Shown: positions 17,401 through 32,047, counted from the first letter of the stretch. The stretch: 64,000 bases of DNA from a virus (IMGVR_UViG_3300037307_000190), one strand, 5' to 3'. The notes: a model not told the origin generated them from the letters alone. Numbers and translations are program-made.

Positions 17401-17608
17401 TCCGAAGATGGCGACCGCCAAGATGTTCCAGACGCAACAGCGGCGGTTCACAGAGTTGTCGAAGCGCATTCGCGTGGTGCGCGCCGATCGAGAAATGGAC
17501 GGCGACACGAAGCGCGATCGCCTCGACGAGTTGACCCAGCAGCGCAACATGCTGGCGAAGGTCGTCATGGAGCGAGCTGAGCGAGCCCAAGCACAAGCGC
17601 AGCGATGA
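5405..17608 (+). CDS. giant multidomain 'polyvalent' virion protein (4067 aa): MTase + SNF2-type helicase + HExxH peptidase-like + ART-like + PLxRFG-type C-terminal module
   Basis: Uninterrupted 12.2-kb ORF. Motifs read from the translation:
- EPTAGNAAL and LMNPPFG
- GDQTGIGKGR, FDESHNAGG and QMLGRVHRTGQ
- FHEVLGH
- VYHGT..GAGFFFGE..EWVAF
- GLMRFG
This domain mix matches DarB-like polyvalent proteins of phages and conjugative elements (recollection). Confidence 0.85.
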   Translation: MDDLDRLLAGPQSADPYDQLLAGPRGRAQPAPKAEPQPGFIPTVKRTGGQMLTSLARSIEDIGGPQAISQPIRQTGEAIVQSNPAGIGSLEQAAESPWLTVKEAVGQMVPQVGAAGVGATLGGIAGRAIGSRFGAGQLGEKAGRYVGGLSPIFVQEYGGVRDKQVAGGQEDKLRALGAAGISTGLEVLGPEAKVIKGLVGAPLKMGVKDVGIGALKQAGIETFTEGTQNVVGQIGAFEDPTTPQALDETALSALMGGIGGGVVGGALRGAESLMAPGEQEKAPAIEEPPPPQLPYAPDPLVVFPDGSVASKSEAEKIIRAREAAARPWMQPTAPLPEEGPLSKTVNRAVEQGVVSPDLAPAETMGGEDVARTTGAGQPQAAIGGGGPPTGRGGQAQPGGVPEPAAAAAQAPAPSAEAGGVQRGRPDKALTAPADWPVQYGKGVIKTVSALEKYRSDVVADITRLSNGPQKEARRETLARIDASIAQANEEYTNARTDVQGVRAPEGGGVPAERVAESVPPAGEVVPAPGQPVPATTGRAAKPEQQPAAQVVPAQVVEGANRPEQPAVATDVARVEGTQGVANEPVAQQAAVRQMPEGATVDEEARPAGAVVAPTAPATSAAGEAAFQPVAAGPVNRPDGGVTRVDEAANVAATSQTVGPSASAEASLPVQAQPNAAPPASVFESGGATVSQAGVPSEPEPAGAAPRQGKIGDKLAAGEVVLTASGRATTPFPKVSMGSNRATTNTVRSVDRWLLENAAAEAQARGDDFNARTFQADAQSKSMPPASKDAAEEYLFGQQPSVVPSILKPLSPSATPQAPAPAPETAQGAATPAGVAPTRAQFEGFDRVEVKTDAGWKQGVVKMAGSQEVTVRLDDGNDVTVPESNVVPVATALTPEAAPVSAAPLGESNAQEIGIQQGVGDPLGGDAARQAAEAAGGNRLLAAAGGAKVAGQVGIPATEGGAAQVGGPGAIGAGQAAPPIAAPTEGVQRGQVQEGRGQDATQALLSQEPPPQIPPAAAPTNIPTEKPKIVPSKNTIFTDEMRESARAVLRSKLRNINSGLDPEVVQAGITIAGYHIEKGARTFAAYAKAMVADLGHGIKPYLKSWYMAAKYDDRLSPFSKEMDDENTILSWRPSELKSPEGRNEVAKEVAAHFDAGNAFPTINEARTFVASLTGEKIEPGTQEAKLTDEAVENGVVLAARKIVAAGREQGQDDGAIFGRLVKLYDSQPNLGVRSSTSIREQAYSTPTPLAFITSRLANVKPTDRVGEPTAGNAALLVEVDPKNAVVNELNPDRADNLKQLGFSPSANDAATTDLATPKSLDVVLMNPPFGAVKDAEGNTKSYQLTENVRTNEVDQAIAWNSLKAMKDDGRAVLLLGGVDATDPEQIREGYRSRAKREFYWRLYNDYNVVDHFTVDGGLYSRQGAGYPVDVVVIRGRGKTQGRQLPAAQLPDRLTSWQQIKERADGLAQERNAGALLPGVRGPGAGVGAGPEGGGVASPVVGGPGVPGGGAGEQGARPAGGNVPSSEGAGNRPTGRPAGSGSNVRPVQPATEKRPVASGERPQPAVSGEGGARKPVGQAGTQGGRPSEVGGTRVVTGERVESGIGADRRGQETETATQVAYKPKSKVPSVGTLVPVNLRDPIQESLSRMEQEHGNLDTYVARELGIPLQDARDYFSAEQVDALAMAIHNANNGSGFIIGDQTGIGKGRVVAGMIRYAMKQGKVPLFVTEKPNLYGDMIRDLDDTGMTDVLKLDTRTPAIFITNEETIPYSLIRQIDGESVERALKLAPPARGKSLAAAMAEMRDKNSISPYKVIFTTYSQIQTQRGGATERMRFIQQLADGGFAIFDESHNAGGTTVTQPRTKEQRAAAKQGETTMGRAAFVRKLVSKAWGTLFSSATYAKRPDVMDLYSSTNMRLAVPKLADLADAITDGGVPMQQIVATMLAKDGQYIRRERTFAGVDYNTRAMTVDRETAENMAESMREILKFSRRMQTLLKQKQKYLDTEGVKVGTLEGGEKQTIQATNFGSVMHNLIDQMLLSLKAKDSVAFAIERLKAGEKVVLTVSNTMGSFIENFADENGLRNGDAMSLNFGDLYIRYLDKQRYYKVKTPGGATEERYIEDEEMSEKDLALYKETRAFIKGAGFGDAPVSPIDYMHQQLRAAGYKTDEITGRNVGVNYETEIPTLQSRNGSIKQRVDAIRGFNNGSVDALILNQSGATGLSLHASSKVQDKRMRHMIIVQPEKNIDTHVQMLGRVHRTGQVRVPAYTQAMADIPAEMRPAAVLLKKMASLNANTTASRKSAVTAEGVVDFMNDYGGQIAIEYLADNPDVHQSIGGNKVIAIPEDPNEANEDVIRKLTGYIPILPIATQEKVYADLAQRYNELIAREDAMGTNKLEARTLDLDAKTLGRESITENKRGDSIFAQPAYMERVDVKRTVKPMTNAEVDAAIAERLGDKTQQQFINDLYDTALKEKDAFIERRAAELTELGADATRIQLVKDNVNLQWGTVAAVLRTYPPGTRVTMTTSDGTINHGTVLDIQNARTTANPVAGSSWKLTLALVNADARVLQINVGQIGTRYNLNVTNVEIPVIMGTGGVEWVTVKELHDRGPNVRRERRYIVTGNILAGYSTYQGQIITYTKDDGTTGQGVLMSRLFNFEKVKARNIKFTSAAPLMQFLKESADAVVTTDGGLRVTKWNDQYVSFQTAPSKREGGRYFLDKRLTEILRTDFFTVSGKMVARVRGGDVEQIVRQALEYLITERDEAFTPRNNVEKAKSILGIGKVETPTIKAPELDFAPEGEKPSDLKAGARAPDLDIPPEGGGDVRFSRQATSPWYSDLARHVEKAAGGLPMFARGEAQAARVVEVQKLADSITSAWKDAPTIKVVESLRDEGVPEAIRKQDQKQTASGAAKGASAVFYKNTVYLVAGSLGTQRQVAEAVFHEVLGHYGLRATFGAQLNRILDNMARVNRAQIEAKAKEYGLDLSKEGDRRMAAEEVLADLAEKRPQSGWVKQAIAAIRTWLRENLPSVFGDMKMSDAELVRNYILPARRTVETGTPAKGEGRAAFQRAPIVTETPEFKKWFGDSKVVNADGKPLVVYHGTTADFDVFDLSWTEVSPRGNTAGAGFFFGESALEAEGYTWGARGPEGSIMPVYLSIKSPYVIGENKYDDPVWNRMVQSKSEAKRVREELVAQGYDGIRTALGEWVAFRPEQIKSATGNSGAFDPTNPDIRFSRRSTELPEWISSGPAALQSAARKFETFAPGKTIGEKFDQWKTGLLDRLIQGTIDAYLPLKRLDMDAYIQARMTKASDGALEGTLLYGKPVLDDDGGVRGILDGKGFLGLMQDLNGEHDRFLLWVAGNRAARLYSEGRENLLEPEEIKALQKLDKDVMTDGRQRAQVYEKTQREFAQFNKAVLDFAEKAGIVNGTDRDQWEAYFYVPFFRVSEDSTIEGPSVKVRGLVGQQGIKRLLGGKDNMGDPLQNTMMNWSHLLSASLANVAAGKALRAAQAQGVAEQTTEAEARIVAKASGFRDGAVYYMKDGQRQWYMVADNAVLSAITSLEPVGLKGPAFKLMQKAKYWLTLGATISPAFKIRNLLRDTVAAPGINQMSYNVLSNVIQGWKGTKKTSEHYQQMMFSGGLMRFGTLIEGERGLHAKRLIEAGIKDQTILDTPEKIKAATTKLWDTWQEFGDRMENVNRSALYDQLKKQGKSHREAAFLTRDLMDFSLHGSWAGMRILTQVVPFLNARIQGLYKLGRAYKDDRKRFATMTGAVALTSIALMLAYKDDDEWKQREDWDRDFYWWFKLDGVAYRIPKPFEIGALGTIAERTAELLVDDEMNGKRYAERLKQMALHTFSMNPVPQLFKPMVDLYANNDSFTGRPIETFAMEGRSKSERTGPSTTALAKFLGSAGDVTGVSPAQIDFVIGAYFGWLGMMTAAVVDTAVSPVSSVPAPAKRWDDWAMRFATELPEAQSRYVTNFYNSAKEAQGILADLRAAREERDMERIAELMADPKMATAKMFQTQQRRFTELSKRIRVVRADREMDGDTKRDRLDELTQQRNMLAKVVMERAERAQAQAQR
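6507..6692 (+). CDS. nested +1-frame small ORF (61 aa) inside a giant-ORF linker
   Basis: GGGAGGTG is followed by 4 nt and then the ATG. By hand count, 55/61 third positions are G/C in this frame against 22/62 in the host frame over the same stretch. The peptide MLPALQELVSLKLLSVEEAHQLDEV... has normal composition. Confidence 0.45.
   Translation: MLPALQELVSLKLLSVEEAHQLDEVAKRSPAEFLSLPLPLLKRLLQAQRLAAFNVADQTRH
6882..7145 (+). CDS. nested +1-frame small ORF (87 aa), Cys-rich N-terminus
   Basis: GAGGA lies 8 nt upstream of the ATG. The nested frame has high GC3 while the host frame turns A/T-ending. Peptide begins MQGLTCKACERPRVEECRLRGWPNLC... Confidence 0.4.
   Translation: MQGLTCKACERPRVEECRLRGWPNLCRLREKLFPHPDSPYPPLPDELLSPNSSPQRRSFLLKLWKGRIDPSNPQWQPTLPEWKVLKE
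7149..7355 (+). CDS. nested +1-frame small ORF (68 aa) with a CGKC motif, coupled to the preceding nested ORF
   Basis: AAGGAG precedes the ATG, which lies 3 nt after the TAG of ORF 6882..7145. MNPLHNKPPCGKCQKARLLMRKLGL resembles a redoxin-type N-terminus. High GC3. Confidence 0.4.
   Translation: MNPLHNKPPCGKCQKARLLMRKLGLPVPLLHQPPRQPALLAKPPSNPWLQGQSTGPMAESPESMKRPT
8127..8315 (+). CDS. nested +1-frame small basic ORF (62 aa)
   Basis: TAGGAG lies 6 nt upstream of the ATG. By hand count, 56/63 third positions are G/C against 35/63 in the host frame. MLKKSASNKALETLSAEMQPGKPQKQPAAIAYSQQRAAQ resembles small basic proteins with a KQA(I/V)AI..S.AR motif (recollection). Confidence 0.5.
   Translation: MLKKSASNKALETLSAEMQPGKPQKQPAAIAYSQQRAAQKSQGKSVSPPPKAAPRKSAGRGR
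8367..8417 (+). CDS. nested +1-frame micro-ORF (16 aa, MGKSKKGGGKTPPKPC)
   Basis: GAAGGAG lies 6 nt upstream of the GTG, in the same frame as 8127..8315 and 51 nt after its TAG. It may be the severed tail of that ORF. Confidence 0.25.
   Translation: MGKSKKGGGKTPPKPC
9120..9760 (+). other. N6-adenine DNA methyltransferase-like domain of the giant protein
   Basis: Motif I-like GEPTAGNAAL at about 9200-9226. Motif IV NPPF at 9377-9388, in frame with 5405. Confidence 0.7.
9792..10211 (+). CDS. nested +1-frame ORF (139 aa) inside the Gly/Pro-rich linker between the MTase and helicase domains
   Basis: AAGGAG lies 7 nt upstream of the ATG. Nearly every codon ends in G/C, while the host frame reads gga/ggt/gct/caa codons. 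The peptide MASRKNVTLVPFCPEYVDPELG... is globular-looking. Confidence 0.5.
   Translation: MASRKNVTLVPFCPEYVDPELGSVLVPKGEVSQAQWWEALAFRVAELVSKEHDPQAAMYQAARALGTGLPDDPQEAGAMFVLSNLQLKNALSHQANDHSLQFPAKAALGNPSAKQALKEVDLQRWVELASSQVSESSLE
10490..12175 (+). other. SNF2/DEAD-like helicase domain of the giant protein
   Basis: GDQTGIGKGR at about 10492-10521, DESH at 10937-10948 and QMLGRVHRTGQ at 12140-12172. All are in frame. Confidence 0.75.
14204..14221 (+). other. HExxH zinc-peptidase-like motif (HEVLGH) in the giant protein
   Basis: The triplets cac gaa gtc ctc ggg cac read directly, in frame. Confidence 0.6.
14660..15022 (+). other. ADP-ribosyltransferase-like (ART-PolyVal-type) module of the giant protein
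   Basis: PLVVYHGTTADFDVFDL ... GAGFFFGES ... YDGIRT ... GEWVAFRPEQIKS resembles the H-Y/S-E type ART pattern (recollection). Confidence 0.5.
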
Positions 17609-22224: not shown

Positions 22225-22503
22225 TCACTGGCGATCCGTATAACTCACGTTGGGCGGCTTGCGCACCACCACGGCCGGGCGCGGCGAAGCGCAGTCGCAA
22301 GTGGCAAGGTCCATCGCGCACGCCTCGCAGACGTTCGGTTCCGGCAACGCGCGCCAATCCTCATCGCCCAGGCGCTCCGAGAAGTCGTCGGGGCGGTAGT
22401 CATATCGCGTCCACGTCTTCCACGGGTGCAGCAGCGCGGAGTGGTGGCCCCATACGCCGCCGCGCCAGCGGCGATACCAGCGGAAATGCACAAGCAGGTT
22501 CAT
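22225..22503 (-). CDS. hypothetical protein (92 aa)
   Basis: M15 of the track ORF. ATGA overlap with the upstream gene's stop at 22500. Confidence 0.5.
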   Translation of the reverse strand: MNLLVHFRWYRRWRGGVWGHHSALLHPWKTWTRYDYRPDDFSERLGDEDWRALPEPNVCEACAMDLATCDCASPRPAVVVRKPPNVSYTDRQ

Positions 22504-22754
22504 CGGTTCCAGTCCTCCACGCAGTCGCCGCACAGCAGCTTGCATTCCGCGCTGGTGCGCGGGTCGTCGCGGTGCGGGCCGCAGTTCATCGTGCAGAGCT
22601 TCGTGCTCGGGTCAAAGGCGGCCAGCGCTGCTGGGTCGGCGCGCGGCCATTGAATCGGAGCGCACAGTGCATCGCGCTTCGGAACCAGCCGCCCAACCCC
22701 TCGCTCAACCTGACCCAAAGGGGCAGGCTGCACCTGTGCTTCGTCATGCTTCAT
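22500..22754 (-). CDS. hypothetical Cys-rich protein (84 aa); the N-terminus lies inside attC-like element L
   Basis: High GC3 from about codon 23 onward. C-terminal CTMNCGPH...CKLLCGDC. Confidence 0.5.
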   Translation of the reverse strand: MKHDEAQVQPAPLGQVERGVGRLVPKRDALCAPIQWPRADPAALAAFDPSTKLCTMNCGPHRDDPRTSAECKLLCGDCVEDWNR

Positions 22755-22792
22755 CTGCTGCCCCTTTGGTCAGGTTAGCTCGAACGTTAGGC
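22691..22792 (+). repeat. attC-like imperfect palindrome L (102 nt)
   Basis: GCCCAAC CCCTC GCT[C]AACCTGACC[C]AAAGGGGCAG[G]C ... GCTGCCCCTTTGGTCAGGTTAGC TCGAAC GTTAGGC. Spacers are 5 and 6 nt, with extra bases in the 5' arm. Confidence 0.7.
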
Positions 22793-23169
22793 GCTAGCGC
22801 TTCCATCGCGTCCATTGCTTCGTCTATTTCTTCCCACCAGCCGTGTTGCGCCCACAGCCCGAGTCCGTCGCACTCCCATTCTTCTGCTTCTGCGCGCAGC
22901 GTTTGATAGGCTTGCGCCACCTTGCGCAGCGCTTGCAACTCCGCTTCTTGTGTGTTTACCGTGCGCGCTAGCACGTCGCGTATCTTCTCGACCTCGCCTA
23001 GATCGTCCGCCAGTTTCTTGCGCCAGCGGTGGTGGTCGTCGCGCTCTTTGGCAATGACATCAACTTCGCGCCATGCAAGCGAGGCTTCCTGCAGCAGAGT
23101 CTCGCGCTCGTCCATGAGGCGGTCGTATTCGTCGCCGCTCAGGCGCACTACGTCAGCGGCGCGGCTCAC
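22744..23169 (-). CDS. hypothetical coiled-coil protein (141 aa)
   Basis: GTG start with GGAGGA upstream and a GTGA overlap with the upstream stop. The last 14 codons run into attC-like element L. Confidence 0.6.
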   Translation of the reverse strand: MSRAADVVRLSGDEYDRLMDERETLLQEASLAWREVDVIAKERDDHHRWRKKLADDLGEVEKIRDVLARTVNTQEAELQALRKVAQAYQTLRAEAEEWECDGLGLWAQHGWWEEIDEAMDAMEALAPNVRANLTKGAADEA

Positions 23170-23504
23170 GCTCTGTCCTCCGCGTCAACCTGTGCCAGCG
23201 CGTCCATGACGGCCTGAACTCGGTCATCGCGCGCCGAGATCGTGCCGTGATAGCCAAGCGGCGCCATCATGGCGTCAACGGCCTGCCGCAGTACGCGATA
23301 GGCGCGAAGCGCTTGCTGCACCTCAACTACGCGCTCCTGCCATGCAATCGCGTTTGATGGCACAAGCGCACCAAGTCTGCGCACTTCCACCACCAGATCG
23401 CGGATCACCGCGAGATAGCCGTACTCATCAGTCATGTTGATGCCGCGTTTGTCCGCCTCATCAAGCCACGTCTGCGCGCGGTTAAGTAAGTCATTTACCG
23501 CCAT
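23166..23504 (-). CDS. hypothetical protein (112 aa)
   Basis: The ATG (MAVNDLLNRAQ...) overlaps the TAA of the small TM ORF. Upstream of it, the track frame has low GC3. Confidence 0.55.
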   Translation of the reverse strand: MAVNDLLNRAQTWLDEADKRGINMTDEYGYLAVIRDLVVEVRRLGALVPSNAIAWQERVVEVQQALRAYRVLRQAVDAMMAPLGYHGTISARDDRVQAVMDALAQVDAEDRA

Positions 23505-23629
23505 GTAGTCAACCTCCCCGTCGCCCACTGCCAGAGGAACCATAGGCCGATCGCAAGCGCCGCAATGCCCACAACGATCAGCGGTAACGCCAGCAACCAC
23601 AGAACCCACAACGGTATGCTCAAGGTCAT
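23495..23629 (-). CDS. small membrane protein (44 aa)
   Basis: Hand translation gives MTLSIPLWVLWLLALPLIVVGIAALAIGLWFLWQWATGRLTTWR. GAGGTGA upstream. GC3 is higher than in the overlapping track frame. Confidence 0.5.
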   Translation of the reverse strand: MTLSIPLWVLWLLALPLIVVGIAALAIGLWFLWQWATGRLTTWR

Positions 23630-23714
23630 ACGTCACCTCATCACTTTGCACGCGCGAAGCGCGCGCCCATGTTTCCAGGCGCGCTCTCGCGGTAAATCGC
23701 TTCGCCACCATCGT

Positions 23715-23770
23715 GCCTAACACGTCATTCGATCCGACCGCCTCGCGGCGGCTCAATTCCCACGTTAGGC
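23715..23770 (+). repeat. attC-like imperfect palindrome A (56 nt)
   Basis: GCCTAAC ACGTC ATTCGATCCGACCGCC TCGC GGCGGCTCAAT TCCCAC GTTAGGC. It aligns along its whole length with the aadA1 59-be as I remember it. Confidence 0.75.
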
Positions 23771-24003
23771 ACCGGCAACCGCCTGCCTTCTCTTTGCTCA
23801 ATCTTCCGCACGGCATCAGCCCATGCTTCCGCCTCCGTCCTGCCAAGGCCAAATAGTCCACGCCTAAATGTTTCAGGCCAGTGCTCGTCGTTCAGTCGTT
23901 TTCGTTCGTCGTGGCTTATGTCCCACACGCTCCATTCGCCAGTACTTTCCTGCTCTGCGCTTGCGTGCGGGTAGCGGCTGCGTACCTTGCCTTGGTTCGT
24001 CAT
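23725..24003 (-). CDS. hypothetical protein (92 aa)
   Basis: AGGAGGG upstream of the ATG. The last 13 codons lie in attC-like element A. Confidence 0.6.
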   Translation of the reverse strand: MTNQGKVRSRYPHASAEQESTGEWSVWDISHDERKRLNDEHWPETFRRGLFGLGRTEAEAWADAVRKIEQREGRRLPVPNVGIEPPRGGRIE

Positions 24004-24019
24004 CTTCTCGCCCTCCTGT

Positions 24020-24079
24020 GCCTAACATTTCATTCAACCCGGACGCTCTACGAGCGTCCGGTTAATTCAAGCGTTAGGC
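24020..24079 (+). repeat. attC-like imperfect palindrome B (60 nt)
   Basis: GCCTAAC ATTTC ATT[C]AACC[C]GGACGCTC TAC GAGCGTCCGGTTAAT TCAAGC GTTAGGC. The 6-nt spacer TCAAGC is identical to that of the remembered aadA1 attC. Confidence 0.8.
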
Positions 24080-24304
24080 CCGTTCAAGCTGTGCAATCGC
24101 CGCATTCAGTTCATCGGCCCACGCGGCGTGTTCGCGGCTGGCTGTCGCATCAACCAATTGCCTAGCCTTACGCAGCGCAACCAGTGCAACATCCCGCGCA
24201 TCATCGCGCTCACGTTCTCGCCGCTGCGCCTCCCTGCCGTGCGCTGGGCAATCTGGGTCTTCGGCGATAAATGGCCCGCCAATCTTGTAGCACTCGCACA
24301 TCAT
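24074..24304 (-). CDS. hypothetical protein (76 aa)
   Basis: GGAGAGAG upstream. The TAA stop is the complement of TTA in the GTTAGGC box of element B. Confidence 0.6.
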   Translation of the reverse strand: MMCECYKIGGPFIAEDPDCPAHGREAQRRERERDDARDVALVALRKARQLVDATASREHAAWADELNAAIAQLERA

Positions 24305-24323
24305 CTCTCTCCGGTTACAACGA

Positions 24324-24384
24324 GCCTAACCCGTCATTCTTAGACCTGCGGATCTCCGAAAAATCTTCGCGCTGGGTGTTGACA
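24324..24384 (+). repeat. attC-like element C, left arm canonical and right arm divergent
   Basis: GCCTAAC CCGTC ATTCTTAGACC... ends at GTTGACA, whose TTGACA is the -35 box of the consensus promoter. Confidence 0.4.
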
Positions 24385-24407
24385 GGCTGCGCCTCGTGGC
24401 GTATAAT
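24379..24407 (+). promoter_or_regulatory. perfect consensus sigma70-type promoter (TTGACA-17 nt-TATAAT)
   Basis: TTGACA at 24379-24384 and TATAAT at 24402-24407, with a 17-nt spacer counted by hand. It faces the two + strand genes. Confidence 0.8.
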
Positions 24408-24461
24408 TGCGTCATCGCATCGGCACAGGGCCGAAGCGCAAACGGCAGAAAGGCCACGATC

Positions 24462-24680
24462 ATGAGCAAGTCCCAATCCCTCGAAACCAGCAACATCGCT
24501 GCCAGCGCCATCCGCCAAGCGCTCCGCCGCGAGTTCGGCGCCCGCCAGTACCGCATCACGCGCGACGGCGAAATTTACGTCTACGGCCCGATGACCAACG
24601 CCACGCACATCATCGGCTGGCGCCTGTACGGTCACGTCAGCGACCAGCAAACGCTGTGCAACCTCGGCTTGGACGCATGA
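24462..24680 (+). CDS. hypothetical protein (72 aa), first gene of a rightward 2-gene module
   Basis: M23 of track ORF 24396..24680, 54 nt downstream of the consensus promoter. Confidence 0.6.
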   Translation: MSKSQSLETSNIAASAIRQALRREFGARQYRITRDGEIYVYGPMTNATHIIGWRLYGHVSDQQTLCNLGLDA

Positions 24681-24895
24681 GCCGGCTACTACATGAGTGC
24701 GGCGAGGCTCTGTATGGGCCTCGCTGGCAGTCCGAATTGGCGCGTGACCTTGATGTAAGCATCCGCACCATGCAACGCTGGGCTGCCGGCACCACAGACG
24801 TGCCGGTCGGTCTGTACGTTGACCTACTGCGCCTGACGCAAGAGCGCGCCGCGGTGCTCGACGAACTCGCTCCACGGCTTCGCAAGGCGCCATAA
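24677..24895 (+). CDS. small HTH DNA-binding protein (72 aa, XRE/Cro-like)
   Basis: ATGA overlap with the upstream gene. ELARDLDVSIRTMQRWAAG is a helix-turn-helix pattern. The TAA stop lies in the first box of attC-like element N. Confidence 0.65.
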   Translation: MSRLLHECGEALYGPRWQSELARDLDVSIRTMQRWAAGTTDVPVGLYVDLLRLTQERAAVLDELAPRLRKAP

Positions 24896-24989
24896 CACGC
24901 CCATCGAGCTGACCCACGCCGGCAAGCAGCGTGTCGCGCGTCGGTTGCATCGTATCGGCCGGCATGTTCAGCTCATGGGCACGTTAAAA
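24890..24989 (+). repeat. attC-like imperfect palindrome N (100 nt), degenerate boxes
   Basis: CCATAAC ACGCC CAT[C]GAGCTGA... ...TTCAGCTCATG GGCAC GTTAAAA. The arms pair with an extra C in the 5' arm. Confidence 0.55.
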
Positions 24990-25186
24990 CTCATTGCGGC
25001 ACCGTCACCAACCATCTGCCCGAGCTTCCAATCGCCAATGTTCGCGCCAAAGAAAAAGTGTCTCGGTGGCGGTGGCCAGCAGCCTTTCTGCATCATCAAT
25101 GCAACGCTGTAGCTGCACAGCAGCTTCCCGTCTTGCCAGCATTCGCGGCACATCGTCGCCGGGTTGTCGTAGGTGCAAACGGCCAT
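24968..25186 (-). CDS. hypothetical Cys-containing protein (72 aa)
   Basis: Track ORF. The ATG lies 4 nt from the TTCTAAC box of element D. Confidence 0.5.
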   Translation of the reverse strand: MAVCTYDNPATMCRECWQDGKLLCSYSVALMMQKGCWPPPPRHFFFGANIGDWKLGQMVGDGAAMSFNVPMS

Positions 25187-25189
25187 GAG

Positions 25190-25261
25190 TTCTAACCCTG
25201 CGTTCCATGCGCGACAGTCCGAAGCTGCGCTTCGTCCTGCGGCCTGAACTCCACGTTAGGC
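25190..25261 (+). repeat. attC-like imperfect palindrome D (72 nt)
   Basis: TTCTAAC CCTGC GTTCCATGCGCG ... GCGGCCTGAAC TCCAC GTTAGGC. Confidence 0.55.
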
Positions 25262-25564
25262 GTCGGGGTCATCCGGGCACGCCATCCAGTAGCGCGGCTG
25301 GTGCAGCCAGTAGCCGTCCCACGTAAGGTGCCACCCCTCGGAGCCGCTGCCGCGTTTGTCGTCGGCCGCGAGCCACCGCGCTGCGTGCGGGATGTCGCTG
25401 CCGTCCATCAGCACAAGGATCGCAGTGCCGTCTTTTGGCGCGCTGCGCATGCCTTGCCACGGCCGAGCGGTTGCGCACGCTTGCGCGAACCGCCGCACCG
25501 CAGGAGTCAGCGTGCCGCCGCATCCGGTCTGCGTCATCAGCCTGTGAATCTGCGTGTCGTCCAT
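25256..25564 (-). CDS. hypothetical protein (102 aa), possibly DUF551-like
   Basis: M12 of the track ORF, with GGAGAGGAA upstream. The TAA stop is the complement of TTA in the GTTAGGC box of element D. Confidence 0.55.
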   Translation of the reverse strand: MDDTQIHRLMTQTGCGGTLTPAVRRFAQACATARPWQGMRSAPKDGTAILVLMDGSDIPHAARWLAADDKRGSGSEGWHLTWDGYWLHQPRYWMACPDDPDA

Positions 25565-25588
25565 CGTTTCCTCTCCGTTCACCGCGCC

Positions 25589-25661
25589 GCCTAACACGGC
25601 GCTGCAAGGGACCTCCTACGGCGCTGCGCGCCTTCGTCGGCCCCTGCGCTATGCGTTAGAG
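25589..25661 (+). repeat. attC-like imperfect palindrome E (73 nt)
   Basis: GCCTAAC ACGGC GC[T]GCA[A]GGG[A]CC ... GGCCCCTGCGC TATGC GTTAGAG. Confidence 0.6.
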
Positions 25662-26083
25662 CGCAGCAATTCGTGCCCGCGCCGCCATATCTCAATTTTC
25701 ATGCCGCCGCGCGCATCCAGTTTCTTGGCCTGCGCCTTCGTGACTGTCTGCGCAATTCGCCGGCAGTCCATCTCGTGGCACTGCTGCGGCTTGTCGGCTT
25801 GGCGAGTGCACCCGCCGTCGCCCAGATACACGCAATCGCCGTTCGGTTTGTGGGCCAGCATCAGCGCGCCGGCCATGTATGGGTGCGGCTCGGTATGCCA
25901 GCGGCTCGCGTCCTCGTGCGGCAGTATCCGCACCGCATCATTGTGGCAACAGGCCGTGCAGCCGTTGCATGGCACGGCGTAGAAGCCCATCGCCATTCGC
26001 ACTTGGTGCAGAGTGCGGCTGCGCTCTAACTCTGCGTTCGAGCGGACCTCCAACGGCCCGGCGAGTTCAGTGCCCATCATCAC
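25649..26083 (-). CDS. YkgJ-family CxxCxxCC zinc/iron-chelating domain protein
   Basis: CNGCTACC motif near the N-terminus and further Cys residues downstream. GGGAAGGTG upstream. The first ~29 codons lie in element F (alternative start M30 at 25996). Confidence 0.65.
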   Translation of the reverse strand: MMMGTELAGPLEVRSNAELERSRTLHQVRMAMGFYAVPCNGCTACCHNDAVRILPHEDASRWHTEPHPYMAGALMLAHKPNGDCVYLGDGGCTRQADKPQQCHEMDCRRIAQTVTKAQAKKLDARGGMKIEIWRRGHELLRSNA

Positions 26084-26125
26084 CTTCCCTGCGGGCCGTT
26101 TGGTCCGCTCACCTCTGCGTTAGAC
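26024..26125 (+). repeat. attC-like imperfect palindrome F (102 nt)
   Basis: CTCTAAC TCTGC GTT[C]GAGCGGACC[TCC]AACGGCCCG ... CGGGCCGTTTGGTCCGCTCAC CTCTGC GTTAGAC. Confidence 0.7.
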
Positions 26126-26311
26126 ATCTAGTTCGTCCAGCTTCTTTGCCGTGTCGATTGCAAACCCGGCAGCGATCAAAGCGGCCTTGAAAGCCTCGAT
26201 CATGTGGTCGAGCCCACCGTCGCCTGAAAGCGAAACCATTGCATGCTGCTTACTTCCGTGTGGGTAAGTCCCGCTGATCGTGATTTCAACCATGTGCGTC
26301 AGTTCGTCCAT
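26120..26311 (-). CDS. hypothetical protein (63 aa)
   Basis: GGAG upstream. The TAA stop is the complement of TTA in the GTTAGAC box of element F. Confidence 0.55.
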   Translation of the reverse strand: MDELTHMVEITISGTYPHGSKQHAMVSLSGDGGLDHMIEAFKAALIAAGFAIDTAKKLDELDV

Positions 26312-26324
26312 CTCAATACTCCAT

Positions 26325-26387
26325 GCCTAACATTTGCGTCAACGCGTACGCTTCGCAAGCTCAGCGCCGGTTACGCCAGCGCTAGGC
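26325..26387 (+). repeat. attC-like imperfect palindrome G (63 nt)
   Basis: GCCTAAC ATTTG CGT[C]AACGCGTACGC ... GCGCCGGTTACGC CAGC GCTAGGC. Confidence 0.6.
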
Positions 26388-26591
26388 CTTACGCGGGCGC
26401 CTGAAAACCCACCACTGCTGCGGCGTCTCTTTGCCGTGCCAGTGAGTCGCGCCGTAGCTGACGAACTCCCATCCCTGTGCGTCCATGTCGTTCAGCCACC
26501 ATTCCATTTGCCCGTAGTCCATCATGTGGCTCGTGGCATCTGGCGGCAGCATCGGTCGCGTCACCCGGTATTCGAACTTCGCCATTGTCAT
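26382..26591 (-). CDS. DUF4177-like small protein (67-69 aa)
   Basis: The FEYRV....LNDMDAQGWEFVS....VFRRP pattern matches the family (recollection). The TAG stop occupies positions 2-4 of the GCTAGGC box of element G. Confidence 0.6.
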   Translation of the reverse strand: MTMAKFEYRVTRPMLPPDATSHMMDYGQMEWWLNDMDAQGWEFVSYGATHWHGKETPQQWWVFRRPRKA

Positions 26592-27007
26592 CCTTTCCGG
26601 CCATCAGGCCTAACAGGTCGCTCAGCCAGCAGCCGCTGCTCGTCGCGTGCCGCTGGGCGCAACTCAGCTCGAACGTTGGCGCTTTCACGCTCCGGCCTGC
26701 ACTCGTGCGCGTGACACACGCCGCATAGGAACCAAGGGTCGCCCAGCGGGCCGTTATGCGTGAACTGCCACTTGTGGCCGATCCTGCCGCAAGCATCGCG
26801 CATGTCCTTCAGGTTTGGGCAGTAGTAGCTCTGGTCGAAGTCACGCATCAGCTCGCGCATAACGTCCCGGCGCTCCTTCTCAATGCCGCGCACGGCGTTG
26901 GCAATCTCGCTGTGCGTTGCCAACTCGCGCGCATCCACCACGCGCCTAACACGCCGGTCGAGCCGACATTCGTCGGCGGCCGGCATCGTCCTGCTTTGGT
27001 CACTCAT
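26588..27007 (-). CDS. hypothetical Cys/His-rich protein (139 aa); the start lies in element I and the tail reads through element H
   Basis: AAGGAGG upstream of the ATG. GC3 drops over the last ~30 codons. Confidence 0.55.
   Translation of the reverse strand: MSDQSRTMPAADECRLDRRVRRVVDARELATHSEIANAVRGIEKERRDVMRELMRDFDQSYYCPNLKDMRDACGRIGHKWQFTHNGPLGDPWFLCGVCHAHECRPERESANVRAELRPAARDEQRLLAERPVRPDGRKG
26608..26681 (+). repeat. attC-like imperfect palindrome H (74 nt)
   Basis: GCCTAAC AGGTC GCTCAGCCAGC ... CAACTCAGC TCGAAC GTTGGCG. Its right end matches element L except for one missing A in the last box. Confidence 0.55.
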
Positions 27008-27042
27008 CAGCGCCTCCTTGTCGGCTCACCAGCACGTTAGGC
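26943..27042 (+). repeat. attC-like imperfect palindrome I (100 nt)
   Basis: GCCTAAC ACGCC GGT[C]GAGCCGACA ... TGTCGGCTCACC AGCAC GTTAGGC. Confidence 0.7.
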
Positions 27043-27059
27043 GTCACAAATCCAACCGG

Positions 27060-27167
27060 TCAATTTCGCAACCTTGCCACAGTCAGCACGTCATTCGCGG
27101 GGTTCACTTTGTGGTCGGTCAGTTCACGCATTTGCGCTCCAAGGTTGTGCCGCCGCGTGTCACTCAT
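27060..27167 (-). CDS. micro-ORF (35 aa) overlapping the end of the upstream gene
   Basis: Hand translation gives MSDTRRHNLGAQMRELTDHKVNPANDVLTVARLRN. The ATG lies inside TATGAGTGA at the end of 27160..27531. Confidence 0.3.
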   Translation of the reverse strand: MSDTRRHNLGAQMRELTDHKVNPANDVLTVARLRN

Positions 27168-27531
27168 ACAGACCCCCAATCGTCTTCTCTACCACCTTGG
27201 CGGCCGCCGGGTCATGCTTGGCCTGTGATCGCAGCATCTGGTGCGTCAGCTTCACCCACATTTCCTCGACCTCTCTATAGACCTCGTCGTCGTGCTTCGC
27301 GAACATCCGGCGCTGGTCGTGCTGCGTATGGCACCCAGCCTTGCCGACTCGATCCACGCACAACGGGAACGCTTGACGATCATCGGCCTTCACGCCCTTT
27401 CCTTTACCGGTGTTGGCGTGCGCGTGGTTCGAGTAGCCGTGAACACCGCATGAGACACACGGCAGCGCGGCCACCAGCCGTCGGTAGGGCTCGCTGCGCA
27501 CGGGCTTGATCTTCGGGAAGCTGGGCATCAT
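27160..27531 (-). CDS. Zn-finger/HNH-like prophage protein (DUF968-like)
   Basis: YRRLVAALPCVSCG...HAHANTGKGKGVKADDRQAFPLC...CHTQHD. Family assignment is from memory. Confidence 0.5.
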   Translation of the reverse strand: MMPSFPKIKPVRSEPYRRLVAALPCVSCGVHGYSNHAHANTGKGKGVKADDRQAFPLCVDRVGKAGCHTQHDQRRMFAKHDDEVYREVEEMWVKLTHQMLRSQAKHDPAAAKVVEKTIGGLYE

Positions 27532-27572: not shown

Positions 27573-27669
27573 GCCTAACGTAGCCGTGGCGGTTGGTTCT
27601 CTGTTCTCTTCGCCAAGCCTCAAGCCTTGCCCGAAGCTGGGCTTCCGTTGCGCCTCTCATCCGTTCCAT
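27573..27669 (+). repeat. possible partial attC-like element J
   Basis: GCCTAAC GTAGC... is present, but I could not find a convincing partner box (GTTGCGC or GTTCCAT) or good arm pairing. Confidence 0.3.
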
Positions 27670-28854: not shown

Positions 28855-29724
28855 TCAACAGCGCACGACGTACTTCGCGTTGGAAAGCAGTTGCTGCTGC
28901 ATCAGGCTGGCGGCGCGGTCGCCGATCTCTTGAATCCAGTCGGCCCAATCGGTTCCATCGATCCCCACGGGGTAGGCGAGGCCGCATCCAATCTCGTCGG
29001 CGATCGCCCTGGCCTTCTCCACGCCGGGGTTGCGCCCCGTCTTCAGCCCTGTTCGCCAGTCGTTGTCAGCGGCGATCACCACCGAGCCCTCGGGTGCCGT
29101 GGCGCGTATAACCGGGGCGATGTTGTCGGCGAAATACGCCACGACAACGCGCACCATCTTGATCGACTGGTAGATCGCCAACCCGGTTGCCAGTCCTTCG
29201 CAGAACACCGTCACCGGCGCCTTGCGTTCAAGCACCACGCTTCCTCCGCGCACAGGGGCATTCGGCCAGAAGCGCTTCTCGCCTTCACCATCAATCGTCT
29301 GGATCGACATCAGGCCGCACTGGCCCATCACGGGGCTGACGAGTTGACCGTCTCTCTCTCGCATGATCGGTAGCGGTGACAGGCCCTTGCCACGCAGGTA
29401 TGGATGAGAGCGCACTGGCCGGCAACCGCGCCACCACGCGCGCGCCGCGCGGATCGCCTCGCGCTTCTCCTGCTGTCGGCGCTCTCGCATCTGTTCAATG
29501 GCTCTTGGGTCGTAGCGACCGCATTCGCCATTCCAGCGTCCGATCGGTTCCGACGAACCTGTTGTCCAGTCTCCGTAGACGCCGCGGCCGTCGGGGTGGA
29601 GCACGTACCACCCGTTCTCACGGTTGGGCTTGGCTTCGGTCCTGCACCTTCGGATCTTGCCGTCCGGCACCACCGCCTTCGGCATGAAGCCGCGACCGAT
29701 CAGCTCTTGCTCAAATGTGTTCAT
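28855..29724 (-). CDS. Toprim-domain DNA primase-like protein
   Basis: VVIAADNDW...GRNPGVEKARAIA (Toprim DxD region). The N-terminal part resembles P4/plasmid-type primase-associated regions. Confidence 0.7.
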   Translation of the reverse strand: MNTFEQELIGRGFMPKAVVPDGKIRRCRTEAKPNRENGWYVLHPDGRGVYGDWTTGSSEPIGRWNGECGRYDPRAIEQMRERRQQEKREAIRAARAWWRGCRPVRSHPYLRGKGLSPLPIMRERDGQLVSPVMGQCGLMSIQTIDGEGEKRFWPNAPVRGGSVVLERKAPVTVFCEGLATGLAIYQSIKMVRVVVAYFADNIAPVIRATAPEGSVVIAADNDWRTGLKTGRNPGVEKARAIADEIGCGLAYPVGIDGTDWADWIQEIGDRAASLMQQQLLSNAKYVVRC

Positions 29725-31193
29725 GCTCGGCTACCCTTTGCCCATCGGATGTTCTGGTATCGGATGAGGTTGGCCACGGCTGTGTCTGCCGGCACCGGGG
29801 TCGTCATCTCGAACTTGCGCGTCGGCCATTGCCCAACCATTTGTCGGTAGATCGCCAACGCCATCTTCTTTGCCGCGACCGGATCGTTCGGGCGGCGCTG
29901 GGTGGCGTACCACACGACCATCGGCCAGACCAAGCGCGTCAGTTCCGCTTCGCGCCCGCCGGCGATCAGTTCCTTCAGAGATCCAGCCACGTGAACCGGA
30001 GCGGCCCTCGGTGGATACTCGTGACCGCACTCAGGGCACGTCGGTCTCGGTGTGTGAAGCGCGCCGCACGACGGGCACTTGATGAACGTCGGCTCCTTCT
30101 CGTGCGCCTTCTGCCTCTCCTTGTGCTTGTGCTCGTCGAGCGCTTCCAGTCCGCGGTCGAAGAACGCCTCCGTGTCGAGGTAGAACCGCGCGGCATTTCC
30201 AGAGTGATCCAGCACGATGCAGTCCGTCTTGCCGTCGCTCGGCCGCAGGCCGCGGCCGAACAACTGGATGTGCTCGGCCATCGACTTCCGTAGCGGGCGG
30301 GCCATGATGATGCAGCTCACGTCTGGCACGTCGAACCCGCGCGACGCAGCGGTGACGGTGATGAGCCCGCGGATCGCCGAGGTGGGCTTGCGGAACTCGC
30401 TGACCACGTCGAAGCGATCGGCGACGTTGTCCTTGTAGGTGTAGGACGCGACGTTGACGCCGGCGGCGATGAACTGCCGGGCCAACTCGTCGACGTGCGC
30501 CGTATCCACCGCGCTGCAGATGAACTTCCGGCCGTTGGCGTGCTTGAGATATTCGTCGACCACGTTGCCGACCACACGCAGCGCGCGCTCGGACGTTTCC
30601 TTCTCGTCCCACTCCCCAGACGACCTGACCGTCACGCCGGTCATGTCAGGCTCCTGGCAACTGAAGATGCGGTAGGGGGCCAGCCAGCCCTCGTTGATGA
30701 GGGCGCGCGTGGTGGTGACGTTGACCACGCCGTCGAACCAAGCCGACAGACCCTTGTTGAAGGGCGTGGCCGTCAAGCCGATGATGATGGATGCCTTCTG
30801 CCGCATCCTCGCCTTGTGCGCTTGATGCAGGATGTGCGCCTCGTCGAACACGTCGAGCACGCTGTCCGGCCACGCGCGTCGCGCCAGCGTCTGCACCGAG
30901 CACACCTGCGTCAGCGCCTGCGGCTCCCACTTCGGGTGATCGCCTTGCACGACACCGTGGCTCAGCTCGTACTTGTCGAACATCGCGCTGGTCTGGTCGA
31001 TGAGACTCAGCCTGTCCACCACGAACGTCGAATTCGAGTTCTTCTGCTGCGCCCTCTCCATCAGGGATGACGCCAGCACCGTCTTGCCGGCCCCTGTGGG
31101 CGCTACGATGAGCAGCGACTTCGCGCCTTGCTTTATCCGGTATCGAGCATCCTCGAGCGCTTTAACTTGATAGTCGCGCAGCTCGATCTTCAT
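29721..31193 (-). CDS. SF2 DEAD/DEAH-box helicase with a C-terminal zinc ribbon
   Basis: M52 of the track ORF, with ATGA overlap to the upstream stop. Motifs APTGAGKT, FDEAHILH and QLFGRGLR, plus CPSCG...CPECG. Confidence 0.8.
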   Translation of the reverse strand: MKIELRDYQVKALEDARYRIKQGAKSLLIVAPTGAGKTVLASSLMERAQQKNSNSTFVVDRLSLIDQTSAMFDKYELSHGVVQGDHPKWEPQALTQVCSVQTLARRAWPDSVLDVFDEAHILHQAHKARMRQKASIIIGLTATPFNKGLSAWFDGVVNVTTTRALINEGWLAPYRIFSCQEPDMTGVTVRSSGEWDEKETSERALRVVGNVVDEYLKHANGRKFICSAVDTAHVDELARQFIAAGVNVASYTYKDNVADRFDVVSEFRKPTSAIRGLITVTAASRGFDVPDVSCIIMARPLRKSMAEHIQLFGRGLRPSDGKTDCIVLDHSGNAARFYLDTEAFFDRGLEALDEHKHKERQKAHEKEPTFIKCPSCGALHTPRPTCPECGHEYPPRAAPVHVAGSLKELIAGGREAELTRLVWPMVVWYATQRRPNDPVAAKKMALAIYRQMVGQWPTRKFEMTTPVPADTAVANLIRYQNIRWAKGSRA

Positions 31194-32047
31194 GCTGCTA
31201 CGCGCTCGGACAGAAGAACTTCGATGGCTGGCGCCACCTTCGTTGGGGCATCGACCCCGAGCAGCTTGGCGCAGCGCCTGAGCTGGTTGCTGTAAACCTG
31301 CAGCCTGCGCGTCATGGCGTTGAGCTGATCGAGCAGTTCGCCGCACTGGCGTTTGAAGTTGTCACGCTGCTTGATGACCTTGACCAGTTCCGCGTTCTTG
31401 TCGGCGGCGCGGTAGGACTGCAACTCCTCTTGCGCCTGCTCGTAGTCTCGCTGCTGCTGCAGCAGATCGTCCGCATTCGGCATCGCGTCGGCCGGCGTCA
31501 CGTCCTTCGCGTCTTCTGGGGGCGCCACTGACGGCGGCGCCTTGATGACGTACCCGCGCGGCTTGGATGTCTGCTTCGCTTCGGCCTGCTTCTTCTGCTC
31601 TCGCTCTCCGGCCAATTTCAGCTTCGCCGTGACCCTGGCCTTTTCCTGGGAGACCCGCGCCTCCCACTCCTTCAGCGCCGACTCGAACTCGACCTCCGGG
31701 ACTGCCGCCAAACGTTGAGCATTGGCTGACAAATCTTTGGTAATACCAACGTCTTTTAGCGTGATTTCAACCTTTTCTACGGGCGGTCGTTGCACACGAC
31801 CGCCCGCAATTGAGCCCCGCCTACCTGTCGCCATGTTGCCGCTCTTCTTCTGCGCGGCCAGCAGTTGACCCAGTCTCCGCTGGGATCGCAGCTTCAGTGC
31901 GCACGCACTTATCTCAAGCGACTTGTCCTTTGCCATGCGAGCGTAGGCGCGGGCCATGTCCGCGTAGTCCTCCCAGCCCTTCACTTCATCGACCTTCACG
32001 CACGCTTGAACAGCGGCGACAGCCTTGTCATAGGCGACCAGTTCCAT
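31190..32047 (-). CDS. hypothetical replication-module protein (285 aa)
   Basis: GGAGGA lies 7 nt upstream of the second ATG, with a TGATG overlap to the upstream stop. Coiled-coil C-terminal half. Confidence 0.6.
   Translation of the reverse strand: MELVAYDKAVAAVQACVKVDEVKGWEDYADMARAYARMAKDKSLEISACALKLRSQRRLGQLLAAQKKSGNMATGRRGSIAGGRVQRPPVEKVEITLKDVGITKDLSANAQRLAAVPEVEFESALKEWEARVSQEKARVTAKLKLAGEREQKKQAEAKQTSKPRGYVIKAPPSVAPPEDAKDVTPADAMPNADDLLQQQRDYEQAQEELQSYRAADKNAELVKVIKQRDNFKRQCGELLDQLNAMTRRLQVYSNQLRRCAKLLGVDAPTKVAPAIEVLLSERVAA

Follow-up and report, generated by a model that had tools for sequence, protein, structure and literature searches.

The stretch of viral DNA analysed here, referred to below as the window, comprises 64,000 nt of IMGVR_UViG_3300037307_000190 and represents a nearly complete tailed phage genome (~63% G+C over the whole window) that encodes a terminase large subunit, a portal protein, a major head protein and recombination proteins of the ERF and YqaJ types. 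Its minus strand carries a long leftward replication/early operon with genes for a helicase (29721-31346), a Toprim protein (28855-29724), a DUF1367 protein and a DUF968 protein. At the distal end of this operon, downstream of the DUF968 gene, ten sites of the integron attC type are located within 4.4 kb (22691-27042), with small open reading frames (ORFs) of the minus strand between them. Read on the plus strand, each of these palindromes starts with RYYYAAC and ends with GTTRRRY, the whole forming an imperfect inverted repeat. A preliminary description of the locus had proposed that positions 24020-26387 hold tightly packed integron-type cassettes whose ORFs run antisense to their attC sites. 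That span proved too small, as the array runs from 22691 to 27042 and is followed by a lone box at 27573; the central proposal is upheld by the strand models, the cassette limits, the recurrence of such arrays and a control array in Tetrasphaera phage TJE1, as described below.

To assign the polarity of the sites we used two models trained on 14 different attC sites from ten plasmid class 1 integrons, all of which lie on the sense strand of their own genes. The 60-nt attC of aadA1 matched plasmid R100 at 100%, directly 3' of aadA1 on the sense strand. A position weight matrix (PWM) was built on the first and last 22 nt of the 14 sites and, in leave-one-out tests, separated the top from the bottom reading by ~20-40 bits for 14 out of 14. 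A covariance model (CM) was constructed from the same sites with the R and L stems specified; it is our own build and differs from the model of IntegronFinder. The sites of the window are listed here with their CM scores and, where given, the z-score (z) of the predicted hairpin.

22691-22792, plus strand: attC s0, the leftmost site, 102 nt; CM 52.7 bits on the plus strand; minus strand folds into one hairpin, z = -4.96
23715-23770, plus strand: attC s1, 56 nt; CM 48.4 bits on the plus and 9.8 bits on the minus strand; hairpin z = -3.46
24020-24079, plus strand: attC s2, 60 nt; CM 55 bits on the plus and 10.9 bits on the minus strand; z = -6.79; PWM 48.6 versus 25.2
24324-24384, plus strand: degenerate attC s3L; R''/L'' intact, 3' half decayed; PWM negative, CM with a 9-bit partial match only
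24890-24989, plus strand: attC s3R, 100 nt; weak boxes CCATAAC/GTTAAAA; CM 14.7 bits on the plus strand; hairpin z = -4.2
25190-25261, plus strand: attC s4, 72 nt; CM 32.1 bits on the plus strand
25589-25661, plus strand: attC s5, 73 nt; CM 22.6 bits on the plus strand; weak predicted hairpin, z = -0.88
26024-26125, plus strand: attC s6, 102 nt; CM 34.5 bits; moves with the YkgJ-like gene, upstream of which contig L022 has a homologous site
26325-26387, plus strand: attC s7, 63 nt; R' box GCTAGGC; CM 27.4 bits on the plus strand
26608-26681, plus strand: degenerate attC s8; CM 17 bits; no hairpin signal, z = +0.86; R' box with a 1-nt deletion
26944-27042, plus strand: attC s9, the rightmost intact site, 99 nt; CM 32.9 bits; hairpin z = -4.14
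27573-27579, plus strand: lone GCCTAAC box; no matching R' box, no hairpin and no CM match

The polarity of these sites was uniform. With the PWM the plus-strand reading was ahead by 10-28 bits at the ten well-formed sites, and still by 13-25 bits when the R boxes were left out; a scan of the whole window returned eight true sites on the plus strand and none on the minus strand. The CM recognized all ten sites on the plus strand, eight of them (22.6-55 bits) at E ≤ 0.002, with E ~1e-11 for the best site at 55 bits, and the two others at 14.7-17 bits. On the minus strand only two of the ten scored, at 10.9 and 9.8 bits. Chance matches to RYYYAAC and GTTRRRY were ruled out: the window contains 13 copies of GCCTAAC (2.85 expected), a count that 0 of 100 shuffles reached, and shuffled windows contained 0-4 PWM matches, as compared with the eight clustered and co-oriented true ones.

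The anatomy of the sites points in the same direction. The R'' and R' boxes deviate from consensus at 0-2 positions over the ten sites, the exceptional boxes being the weak ones of s3R and the R' box of s8 (26675-26681), where a 1-nt deletion turned GTTAGGCG into GTTGGCG. An extra C (a G on the minus strand; NTT-C-RA pattern) is present in the 5' arm of the plus strand at 9/10 sites, s8 having a C·C mismatch at this place, and the central spacers are unpaired over 4-6 nt. The most canonical site is s2, which reads GCCTAAC ATTTC ATT-C-AAC ... GTTAAT TCAAGC GTTAGGC. Spacers and L boxes are close to those of the aadA and aacA4 attC sites (e.g. TCAAGCGTTAG, TAACCCTTCCATCGA). When the bottom (minus) strand was folded, six of the ten sites formed single hairpins at z ≤ -3.5, and s5, s7 and s8 folded weakly. 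In the recombinogenic bottom strand L'' is the box close to the extrahelical bases, and R' contains the AAC at which cleavage occurs (Nivina 2016, PMC5027507), and the G on the minus strand of the window sites is at the same place as these extrahelical bases. The sites in the window are genuine attC hairpins, with R'', L'', L' and R' boxes, an unpaired spacer and extrahelical bases, and their top strand is the plus strand throughout. This assignment had first been made from the bulged C and the spacer lengths, with a formal strand assignment named as the check; bulge position, PWM and CM all agree with it.

The ORFs of the array, by contrast with the class 1 cassettes used for training, are on the other strand:

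22500-22754, 22744-23169, 23166-23507 and 23495-23629, minus strand: four ORFs, the last three between s0 and s1
23725-24003, minus strand: 92-amino-acid (aa) cassette ORF; its tail VPNVGIEPPRGGRIE is read through attC s1
24074-24304, minus strand: 76-aa cassette ORF; ends on a TAA complementary to TTA of the s2 R' box
24968-25186, minus strand: 72-aa cassette ORF; crosses the s3R R' box and ends 16 nt on; start 4 nt from the s4 R'' box
25256-25564, minus strand: 102-aa cassette ORF; Shine-Dalgarno (SD) sequence and ATG at 25564 within the longer frame 25256-25597, TAA stop in the s4 R' box
25649-26083, minus strand: YkgJ-like (CxxCxxCC) cassette ORF; candidate start in the s6 loop
26120-26311, minus strand: 63-aa cassette ORF; TAA stop in the s6 R' box
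26382-26591, minus strand: 69-aa cassette ORF; TAG stop in the s7 R' box, start overlapping the stop of the preceding ORF (ATGA)
26588-27007, minus strand: 139-aa cassette ORF; AAGGAGG-N6-ATG in the s9 loop, R'' box in frame as VRR
27160-27531, minus strand: DUF968-like ORF, flanked by s9 and the lone box; possibly a cassette in the past
24462-24895, plus strand: the sole plus-strand module; holds two 72-aa ORFs, of which the second is HTH-like
24379-24407, plus strand: sigma-70 promoter, TTGACA-17-TATAAT, 12/12 consensus matches

Ten of the 11 units between sites hold minus-strand ORFs exclusively. As the preliminary description had it, all recognizable ORFs of the array are on the minus strand with the module 24462-24895 as the sole exception, and the gene calls of the Joint Genome Institute (JGI) for the same phage concur.

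Given palindromic R boxes, the significance of polarity comes down to the question of which attC goes with which gene. Comparison of contigs was informative on this point. The 139-aa ORF 26588-27007 has homologues on three metagenome contigs (L101-L103), and the block shared with the window covers 26678-27042 (L101) or 26678-27047 (L102 and L103) at 92% identity, with unrelated sequence on both flanks. On the sense strand of the gene, identity starts where the window reads ...TTTGTGAC GCCTAA|C GTGCTGG and L101 reads ...TTGCTGGT GCCCAA|C GTGCCGG, and it stops at ...GAAAGCGCC|, the box position at the gene's end. These limits and the unrelated flanks mean that the shared unit is the gene plus its upstream attC, between the R' boxes of s8 and s9. 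The alignments thus show a presumptive mobile unit that reads TTRRRY-(antisense ORF)-attC-G on the plus strand, each gene having its own attC upstream and not downstream. This unit is bounded by G|TTRRRY at both ends with one attC at its top-strand 3' end, and the YkgJ-like cassette agrees; the conventional placement of an ORF upstream of its attC and co-oriented with the top strand was not what we observed.

In the YkgJ-like family, homology with contig L022 runs from 26121, the predicted s6 crossover being 26119|26120, and s6 is kept in L022 despite a different upstream neighbour gene. At the other end of this cassette, homology with L019 ends at 25655, which is the s5 crossover, and the YkgJ-like gene in L017 is followed by a downstream attC unrelated to s5. 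Family alignments of the YkgJ-like and 139-aa proteins reveal conserved box-encoded residues (...LLRSN and ...ESA*, respectively) with variable tails beyond them. For a third family (ORF 25256-25564) only approximate limits were obtained. A further exchange is visible between L064 (6841-6850) and L069 (6864-6873), where homology ends exactly at GGCTAA|C beside a stop codon; this is a second instance in which a breakpoint coincides with the predicted crossover.

The antisense layout recurs beyond the window. A CM scan gave 45 matches at E ≤ 0.01 in 12 non-redundant sources, namely the window plus eleven phage contigs from metagenomes, with 51-69% G+C and with arrays located behind different operons. 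All 45 were on the strand opposite to the query gene save one, L064 394-451 (plus strand), and since this site adjoins a minus-strand ORF it follows the same antisense rule. For most sites the opposite strand of the neighbouring ORFs was confirmed by gene calls or by the start scan described below. The method has no bias towards antisense, since the published array of TJE1, with three CM matches on the same strand as its genes, scores as conventional. Together, 14 class 1 cassettes and three TJE1 cassettes served as co-oriented controls. In two of the plasmid controls (L027 and L030, 8680-10029) a group II intron (ltrA) is inserted in the aadA2 attC in the opposite orientation to the cassettes; group II introns in attC are a known attC-targeting element.

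Over the 45 related sites 88.5% of the stem cells pair, as compared with 24-41% in slid controls, and 148 cells are altered on both sides versus 51.8 in shuffles, with 0 of 500 shuffles reaching the observed values; the alignment used for this was fitted to the CM, which is a bias towards the structure. Ten of the 12 L-stem pairs have changed on both sides. In IMG/VR the closest Toprim relatives (52% identity) carry no attC sites, and scans with two other cassette proteins yielded no matches. Among bacterial genomes, no attC arrays were found at 27 loci with YkgJ-like genes, apart from one match on a 6.9-kb contig of an unclassified metagenome-assembled genome, so we found no evidence for these cassettes in bacterial integrons.

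The ends of the ORFs had been described as coinciding with the GTT box. The coordinates given for four of them are exact: 24074, 25256 and 26120 (TAA) and 26382 (TAG) are stops formed by the complement of box positions 2-4, in GTTAGGC at 24073-79 and 25255-61, GTTAGAC at 26119-25 and GCTAGGC at 26381-87. G|TTAGGC reads GCC TAA|C on the complementary strand, so any antisense ORF in frame at this point ends on the last three bases of its cassette. This coincidence is present at 4/10 sites, which is about the one-in-three expected for a random frame and by itself not significant, and we have accordingly downgraded the stop-in-box as a special signal. In five further ORFs the frame at the box is a different one, and these run on beyond it for 7, 16, ~40, 43 and 88 nt. 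In the YkgJ-like ORF, for example, the box CTCTAAC is read in frame as the C-terminal ...LLRSN and the end follows 7 nt past the box; ORF 22744-23169 crosses the s0 R' box and terminates 43 nt inside s0. The DUF968 ORF stops 118 nt short of s9. The non-trivial part is that 9/10 ORFs reach the box at all. A survey of the longest open frame put 9/41 stops in the box, and was not relied upon because GC-rich DNA led it to choose wrong frames. In the 139-aa family the stop in the box is what is conserved, most homologues ending ...ESA* in an intact box; in the window the 1-nt deletion in the s8 R' box removed the TAA, so that the 139-aa ORF runs through all of s8 and overlaps the next start (ATGA, 26588-26591).

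The relation of the start codons to the sites is clear. Taking ORFs of 150 nt or longer, we scanned 42 sites for starts preceded by an SD sequence that lay in the site itself or no more than 47 nt past its end. Such starts were found at 35/42 sites in the bottom-sense reading and at 1/42 in the top-sense control. They lie inside the loop at 11/17 long sites (83-132 nt), including s0, s6 and s9, and at 0/25 short sites (52-74 nt); at the short attC sites the SD sequence and start codon follow 13-47 nt after the site. The loop of s0 holds an SD-preceded ATG (22754) for ORF 22500-22754 (minus strand). The initial observation that starts lie 4-42 nt from the next box is thus true of only part of the array, given the SD-preceded ATG inside the loops of s0 and s9 and the candidate in s6. 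In the 139-aa family VRR (GTT AGG CGC in frame) is present in nearly all members after ~20 variable residues, which places the start codon inside the upstream attC throughout this family. Contig L022 has three paralogous s6-type attC sites of ~102 nt (8522-8624, 9539-9640 and 9951-10054; GAGCGGACC...AACGGCCCG), each with an SD-preceded loop start (two ATG, one GTG) and each upstream of a different gene. Such homogeneity of attC within one array is reminiscent of chromosomal integrons.

The single plus-strand module (24462-24895) is a textbook conventional cassette layout: it is co-oriented with the attC top strand, has its TAA stop in the s3R R'' box and carries its own consensus promoter, the -35 hexamer of which is formed by the R'-like GTTGACA of the decayed s3L. 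Its own promoter is what a conventionally built cassette needs for expression in an array of this polarity. Directly after an attC in contig L064 (6396-6530) we noted TTGACA-N17-TATAAT with the palindrome TGTGACATGTCACG between the hexamers, followed by AGGAGG-ATG, an arrangement that resembles a cassette equipped with a promoter of its own, which may be under repressor control.

As for cargo function, Pfam and PHROGs returned almost nothing for the cassette proteins. The DUF4177-like label given earlier to one of them could not be reproduced, Pfam producing only a weak DUF2812 match. In related arrays DNA methyltransferases (N6_N4_Mtase) are present as attC-flanked antisense cassettes (L019 14208-15871, L096 10754-11473 and L064 9177-9839), and there is a weak Lar-like match (E = 0.008) at L022 9589-10011. 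The cargo of the related arrays looks like anti-restriction functions, cf. the other phage arrays of Qi et al. (PMC9892861).

At the right edge of the array, the lone GCCTAAC box is followed ~75 nt later by GTTGCGC (region 27573-27653), without a convincing hairpin. It is probably a decayed relic attC that marks this edge, in which case the DUF968 ORF (27160-27531) may formerly have been a cassette. Proteins identical to those of the window are encoded on a 64,906-nt contig, and fragments of the same phage occur in the JGI metagenomes 3300037308 and 3300043175. Among cultured phages neither the array (megablast, blastn) nor the YkgJ-like protein (tblastn) had a match, and the relatives of the helicase were all below 40% identity. 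Elsewhere in the window a single ORF of 4067 aa (5405-17608, plus strand) presumably encodes a giant virion-associated protein. In L022, the YkgJ-like gene breaks off at ~10300-10712 and is followed by what, judged by eye, is a threonyl-tRNA synthetase-like C-terminal end; this break is either a prophage-host junction, which if real would name the host, or an assembly chimera.

No IntI-like gene was detected in the window or in the related phage loci by tblastn with IntI1, a search in which plasmid controls matched at 99-100%. With no intI, and no attI and cassette promoter (Pc) beside the array, the locus is not an integron but belongs to the attC-site clusters that have no integron integrase (CALINs), and it has what Qi et al. 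2023 (PMC9892861) require of a phage CALIN, i.e. two or more predicted attC sites within 3-4 kb in a phage genome without IntI. We consider it likely that 22691-27042 is an integrase-less integron-type cassette array of inverted cassettes at the distal end of a phage early operon. Since the array lies at the distal end of a long minus-strand operon, and no terminator-like site was found on the minus strand across it, its expression from the phage early promoter is plausible.

Several observations weigh against this interpretation or limit it. Recombination by IntI is deduced solely from site anatomy and breakpoints, as the array contains no integrase. Decay is apparent at several sites, s3L and s8 being degenerate and s5 and s7 weakly folded, so the array may in part have lost its mobility. 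Roughly half of the ORFs extend at the 3' end past the limit of the cassette, which is awkward for a fully autonomous unit. Precise two-sided limits are available for one family, one-sided limits for a second and approximate ones for a third, and attC sites do not delimit the replacement between L064 and L069 at 6527-6705. Since a cassette pool is common to the related arrays, the 45 sites do not equal 45 independent events. Finally, the reasons that we offer below for the inversion are hypotheses.

The most direct alternative is a conventional array in which the true top strand is the minus strand and each ORF is followed by its own attC, with ordinary stops in R''. The palindromic R boxes do give the minus strand a textbook look (stop, RYYYAAC...GTTRRRY, next ORF), and several ORFs end inside the following attC, as is common for conventional cassettes. 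We nevertheless reject this orientation as highly improbable: the PWM favours the plus strand by 10-28 bits, the CM gives 14.7-55 bits there versus a maximum of 10.9 on the minus strand, the extra bases are in the 5' arm of the plus strand, and in the comparative boundaries the unit shared with L101-L103 includes the upstream attC and excludes the downstream one, just as the attC upstream of the YkgJ-like gene is kept in L022 and the downstream one differs in L017. Alternatively, the hairpins might be merely attC-like elements of phage origin, with a role in RNA processing, translational coupling or attenuation, and the cassettes might be shuffled through their conserved ends by ERF/YqaJ-dependent homologous or microhomology recombination, with no part for IntI. 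This would fit the absence of IntI from the window and related phage loci, the ERF and YqaJ-like recombination proteins of the phage, the L064/L069 exchange that ignores attC limits, and the expected transcription of the hairpins, many with an SD sequence and start codon, which suggests a function at the RNA level. We regard it as unlikely, as a model of plasmid class 1 attC sites only reaches 55 bits (E ~1e-11) here, the spacers and L boxes approach those of aadA and aacA4, and the breakpoints are confined to the 7-nt R' box, outside of which the sequences are unrelated, leaving no homology for a strand-annealing protein. Moreover, published phage attC sites were recombined by IntI1 (PMC9892861).

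The array might also be a fossil, that is, a CALIN or a set of cassettes captured once and now immobile, with the antisense layout as a historical accident inherited by related phages. Such a history would account for the decay of s3L and s8, the weak folding of s5 and s7, the lone box at 27573, the homologous genes in L019 and L098 that retain the box alone without an attC, and the non-independence of the related arrays. We find it quite unlikely, because the same cassette occurs with exact R' limits in different neighbourhoods, the arrays are downstream of different operons in contigs of 51-69% G+C, and compensatory changes maintain the stems over the 45 sites. In addition, inverting a whole conventional array cannot render ORFs antisense to their own attC.

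If the array indeed consists of inverted integron-type cassettes, a host integron integrase would excise and insert them in trans, acting on the folded minus strand, which as the bottom strand is here also the coding strand. The genes would be expressed by read-through of the leftward phage operon, such that no Pc is needed, and the inverted design could allow each cassette to supply the signals for translation initiation itself, within its hairpin or next to it. It might furthermore make the recombinogenic bottom strand the non-template strand and, if the genes are co-oriented with replication, also the lagging-strand template; in Vibrio cholerae the lagging-strand-template orientation raises cassette excision (PMC13108822). 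When captured by a bacterial integron, cassettes from the phage would face Pc and might stay silent. Arrays could be seeded outside integrons via attC x attG insertion and imprecise excision, a route that can capture neighbouring genes in either orientation (bioRxiv 10.1101/2022.09.11.507474).

A bolder and more doubtful extension, which we put forward tentatively, is that there might be a separate, phage-adapted pool of reverse cassettes in which the minus-strand DNA hairpin would be the IntI substrate and the mRNA hairpin would present a ribosome-binding site and start codon for each gene, in the loop or shortly behind it. The bottom strand, as the coding and non-template strand and probably also the lagging-strand template, would allow maximal exchange in the short replication burst, and the genes would be silent in bacterial integrons. 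If true, phages exploit the host integron machinery by a mirror-image cassette design, and within the polycistronic transcript of the phage every gene forms a translational unit of its own. The finding yields testable hypotheses on how the directions of replication and transcription control attC folding. Surveys that take ORFs from the strand of the attC would overlook such cargo or annotate it wrongly, and a model of cassette origin in which attC is added to the 3' end of a gene would hardly yield an attC that holds the gene's start codon. The methyltransferases in related phage arrays and the anti-phage defence systems stored in bacterial integrons provide a link to the arms race between phages and their hosts.

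With the cassettes of class 1 integrons (aadA1, aacA4, blaOXA-2) the array shares the boxes, the 5-6 nt spacers, the L stem with an extrahelical base, the variable loop, site lengths of 52-132 nt, the G|TT crossover and the tight packing of one ORF per unit, and its sites are found by a model trained on class 1 only. It differs from them in that the ORFs are opposite to the attC top strand, every gene bears an attC of its own at the 5' end and starts are often in the loop; unlike class 1 integrons, it has no intI, attI or Pc and is placed in a phage operon. The PeSL elements of T4-type phages are promoter-plus-stem-loop repeats that flank small early accessory genes and mark points of exchange by homologous recombination. 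They resemble the present array in the repeated intergenic stem-loops beside small accessory genes of a phage early region, and have no attC anatomy. Chromosomal integrons contain promoter-bearing, Pc-independent cassettes (e.g. toxin-antitoxin cassettes) as isolated exceptions in bacterial arrays. The plus-strand module 24379-24989, with its own consensus promoter and its own attC, is alike. In the remainder of the window array, independence from Pc and antisense orientation are the norm, and the genes would be expressed through the surrounding operon. Nivina 2016 (PMC5027507) cites such promoter-bearing cassettes as exceptional.

CALINs, described in 2016 (PMC4889954), are co-oriented attC arrays without a nearby integrase, and the ~10 sites found here are within their reported range; the differences are that the replicon is a phage and that the cargo is systematically antisense. 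Phage CALINs were reported by Qi et al. 2023 (PMC9892861), who found 17 in 10,705 genomes, illustrated examples with 2-4 sites, described the arrays as conventional in orientation and typical in layout, and showed that phage attC sites are IntI1 substrates. Our arrays are alike in being attC arrays in phage genomes, with methyltransferase cargo in the related arrays L019 and L096, and they differ in the number of sites (~10 in the window), in the antisense cargo, as opposed to the sense cargo of TJE1, and in their recurrence in several metagenomic phage lineages. Full-text literature searches gave no description of systematically antisense attC cargo arrays or of start codons within attC loops. 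The attC sites, CALINs and phage CALINs are thus already known, and the antisense cargo and the loop starts make this a new variant. Integron biology generally assumes that strand selection by the integrase serves the sense placement of promoterless genes behind Pc. Since whole arrays in several lineages carry their genes reversed, the sense-orientation rule is not intrinsic to cassettes: with the canonical polarity of the sites and the crossover kept and the genes turned around, these phage arrays constitute a systematic exception to the textbook rule.

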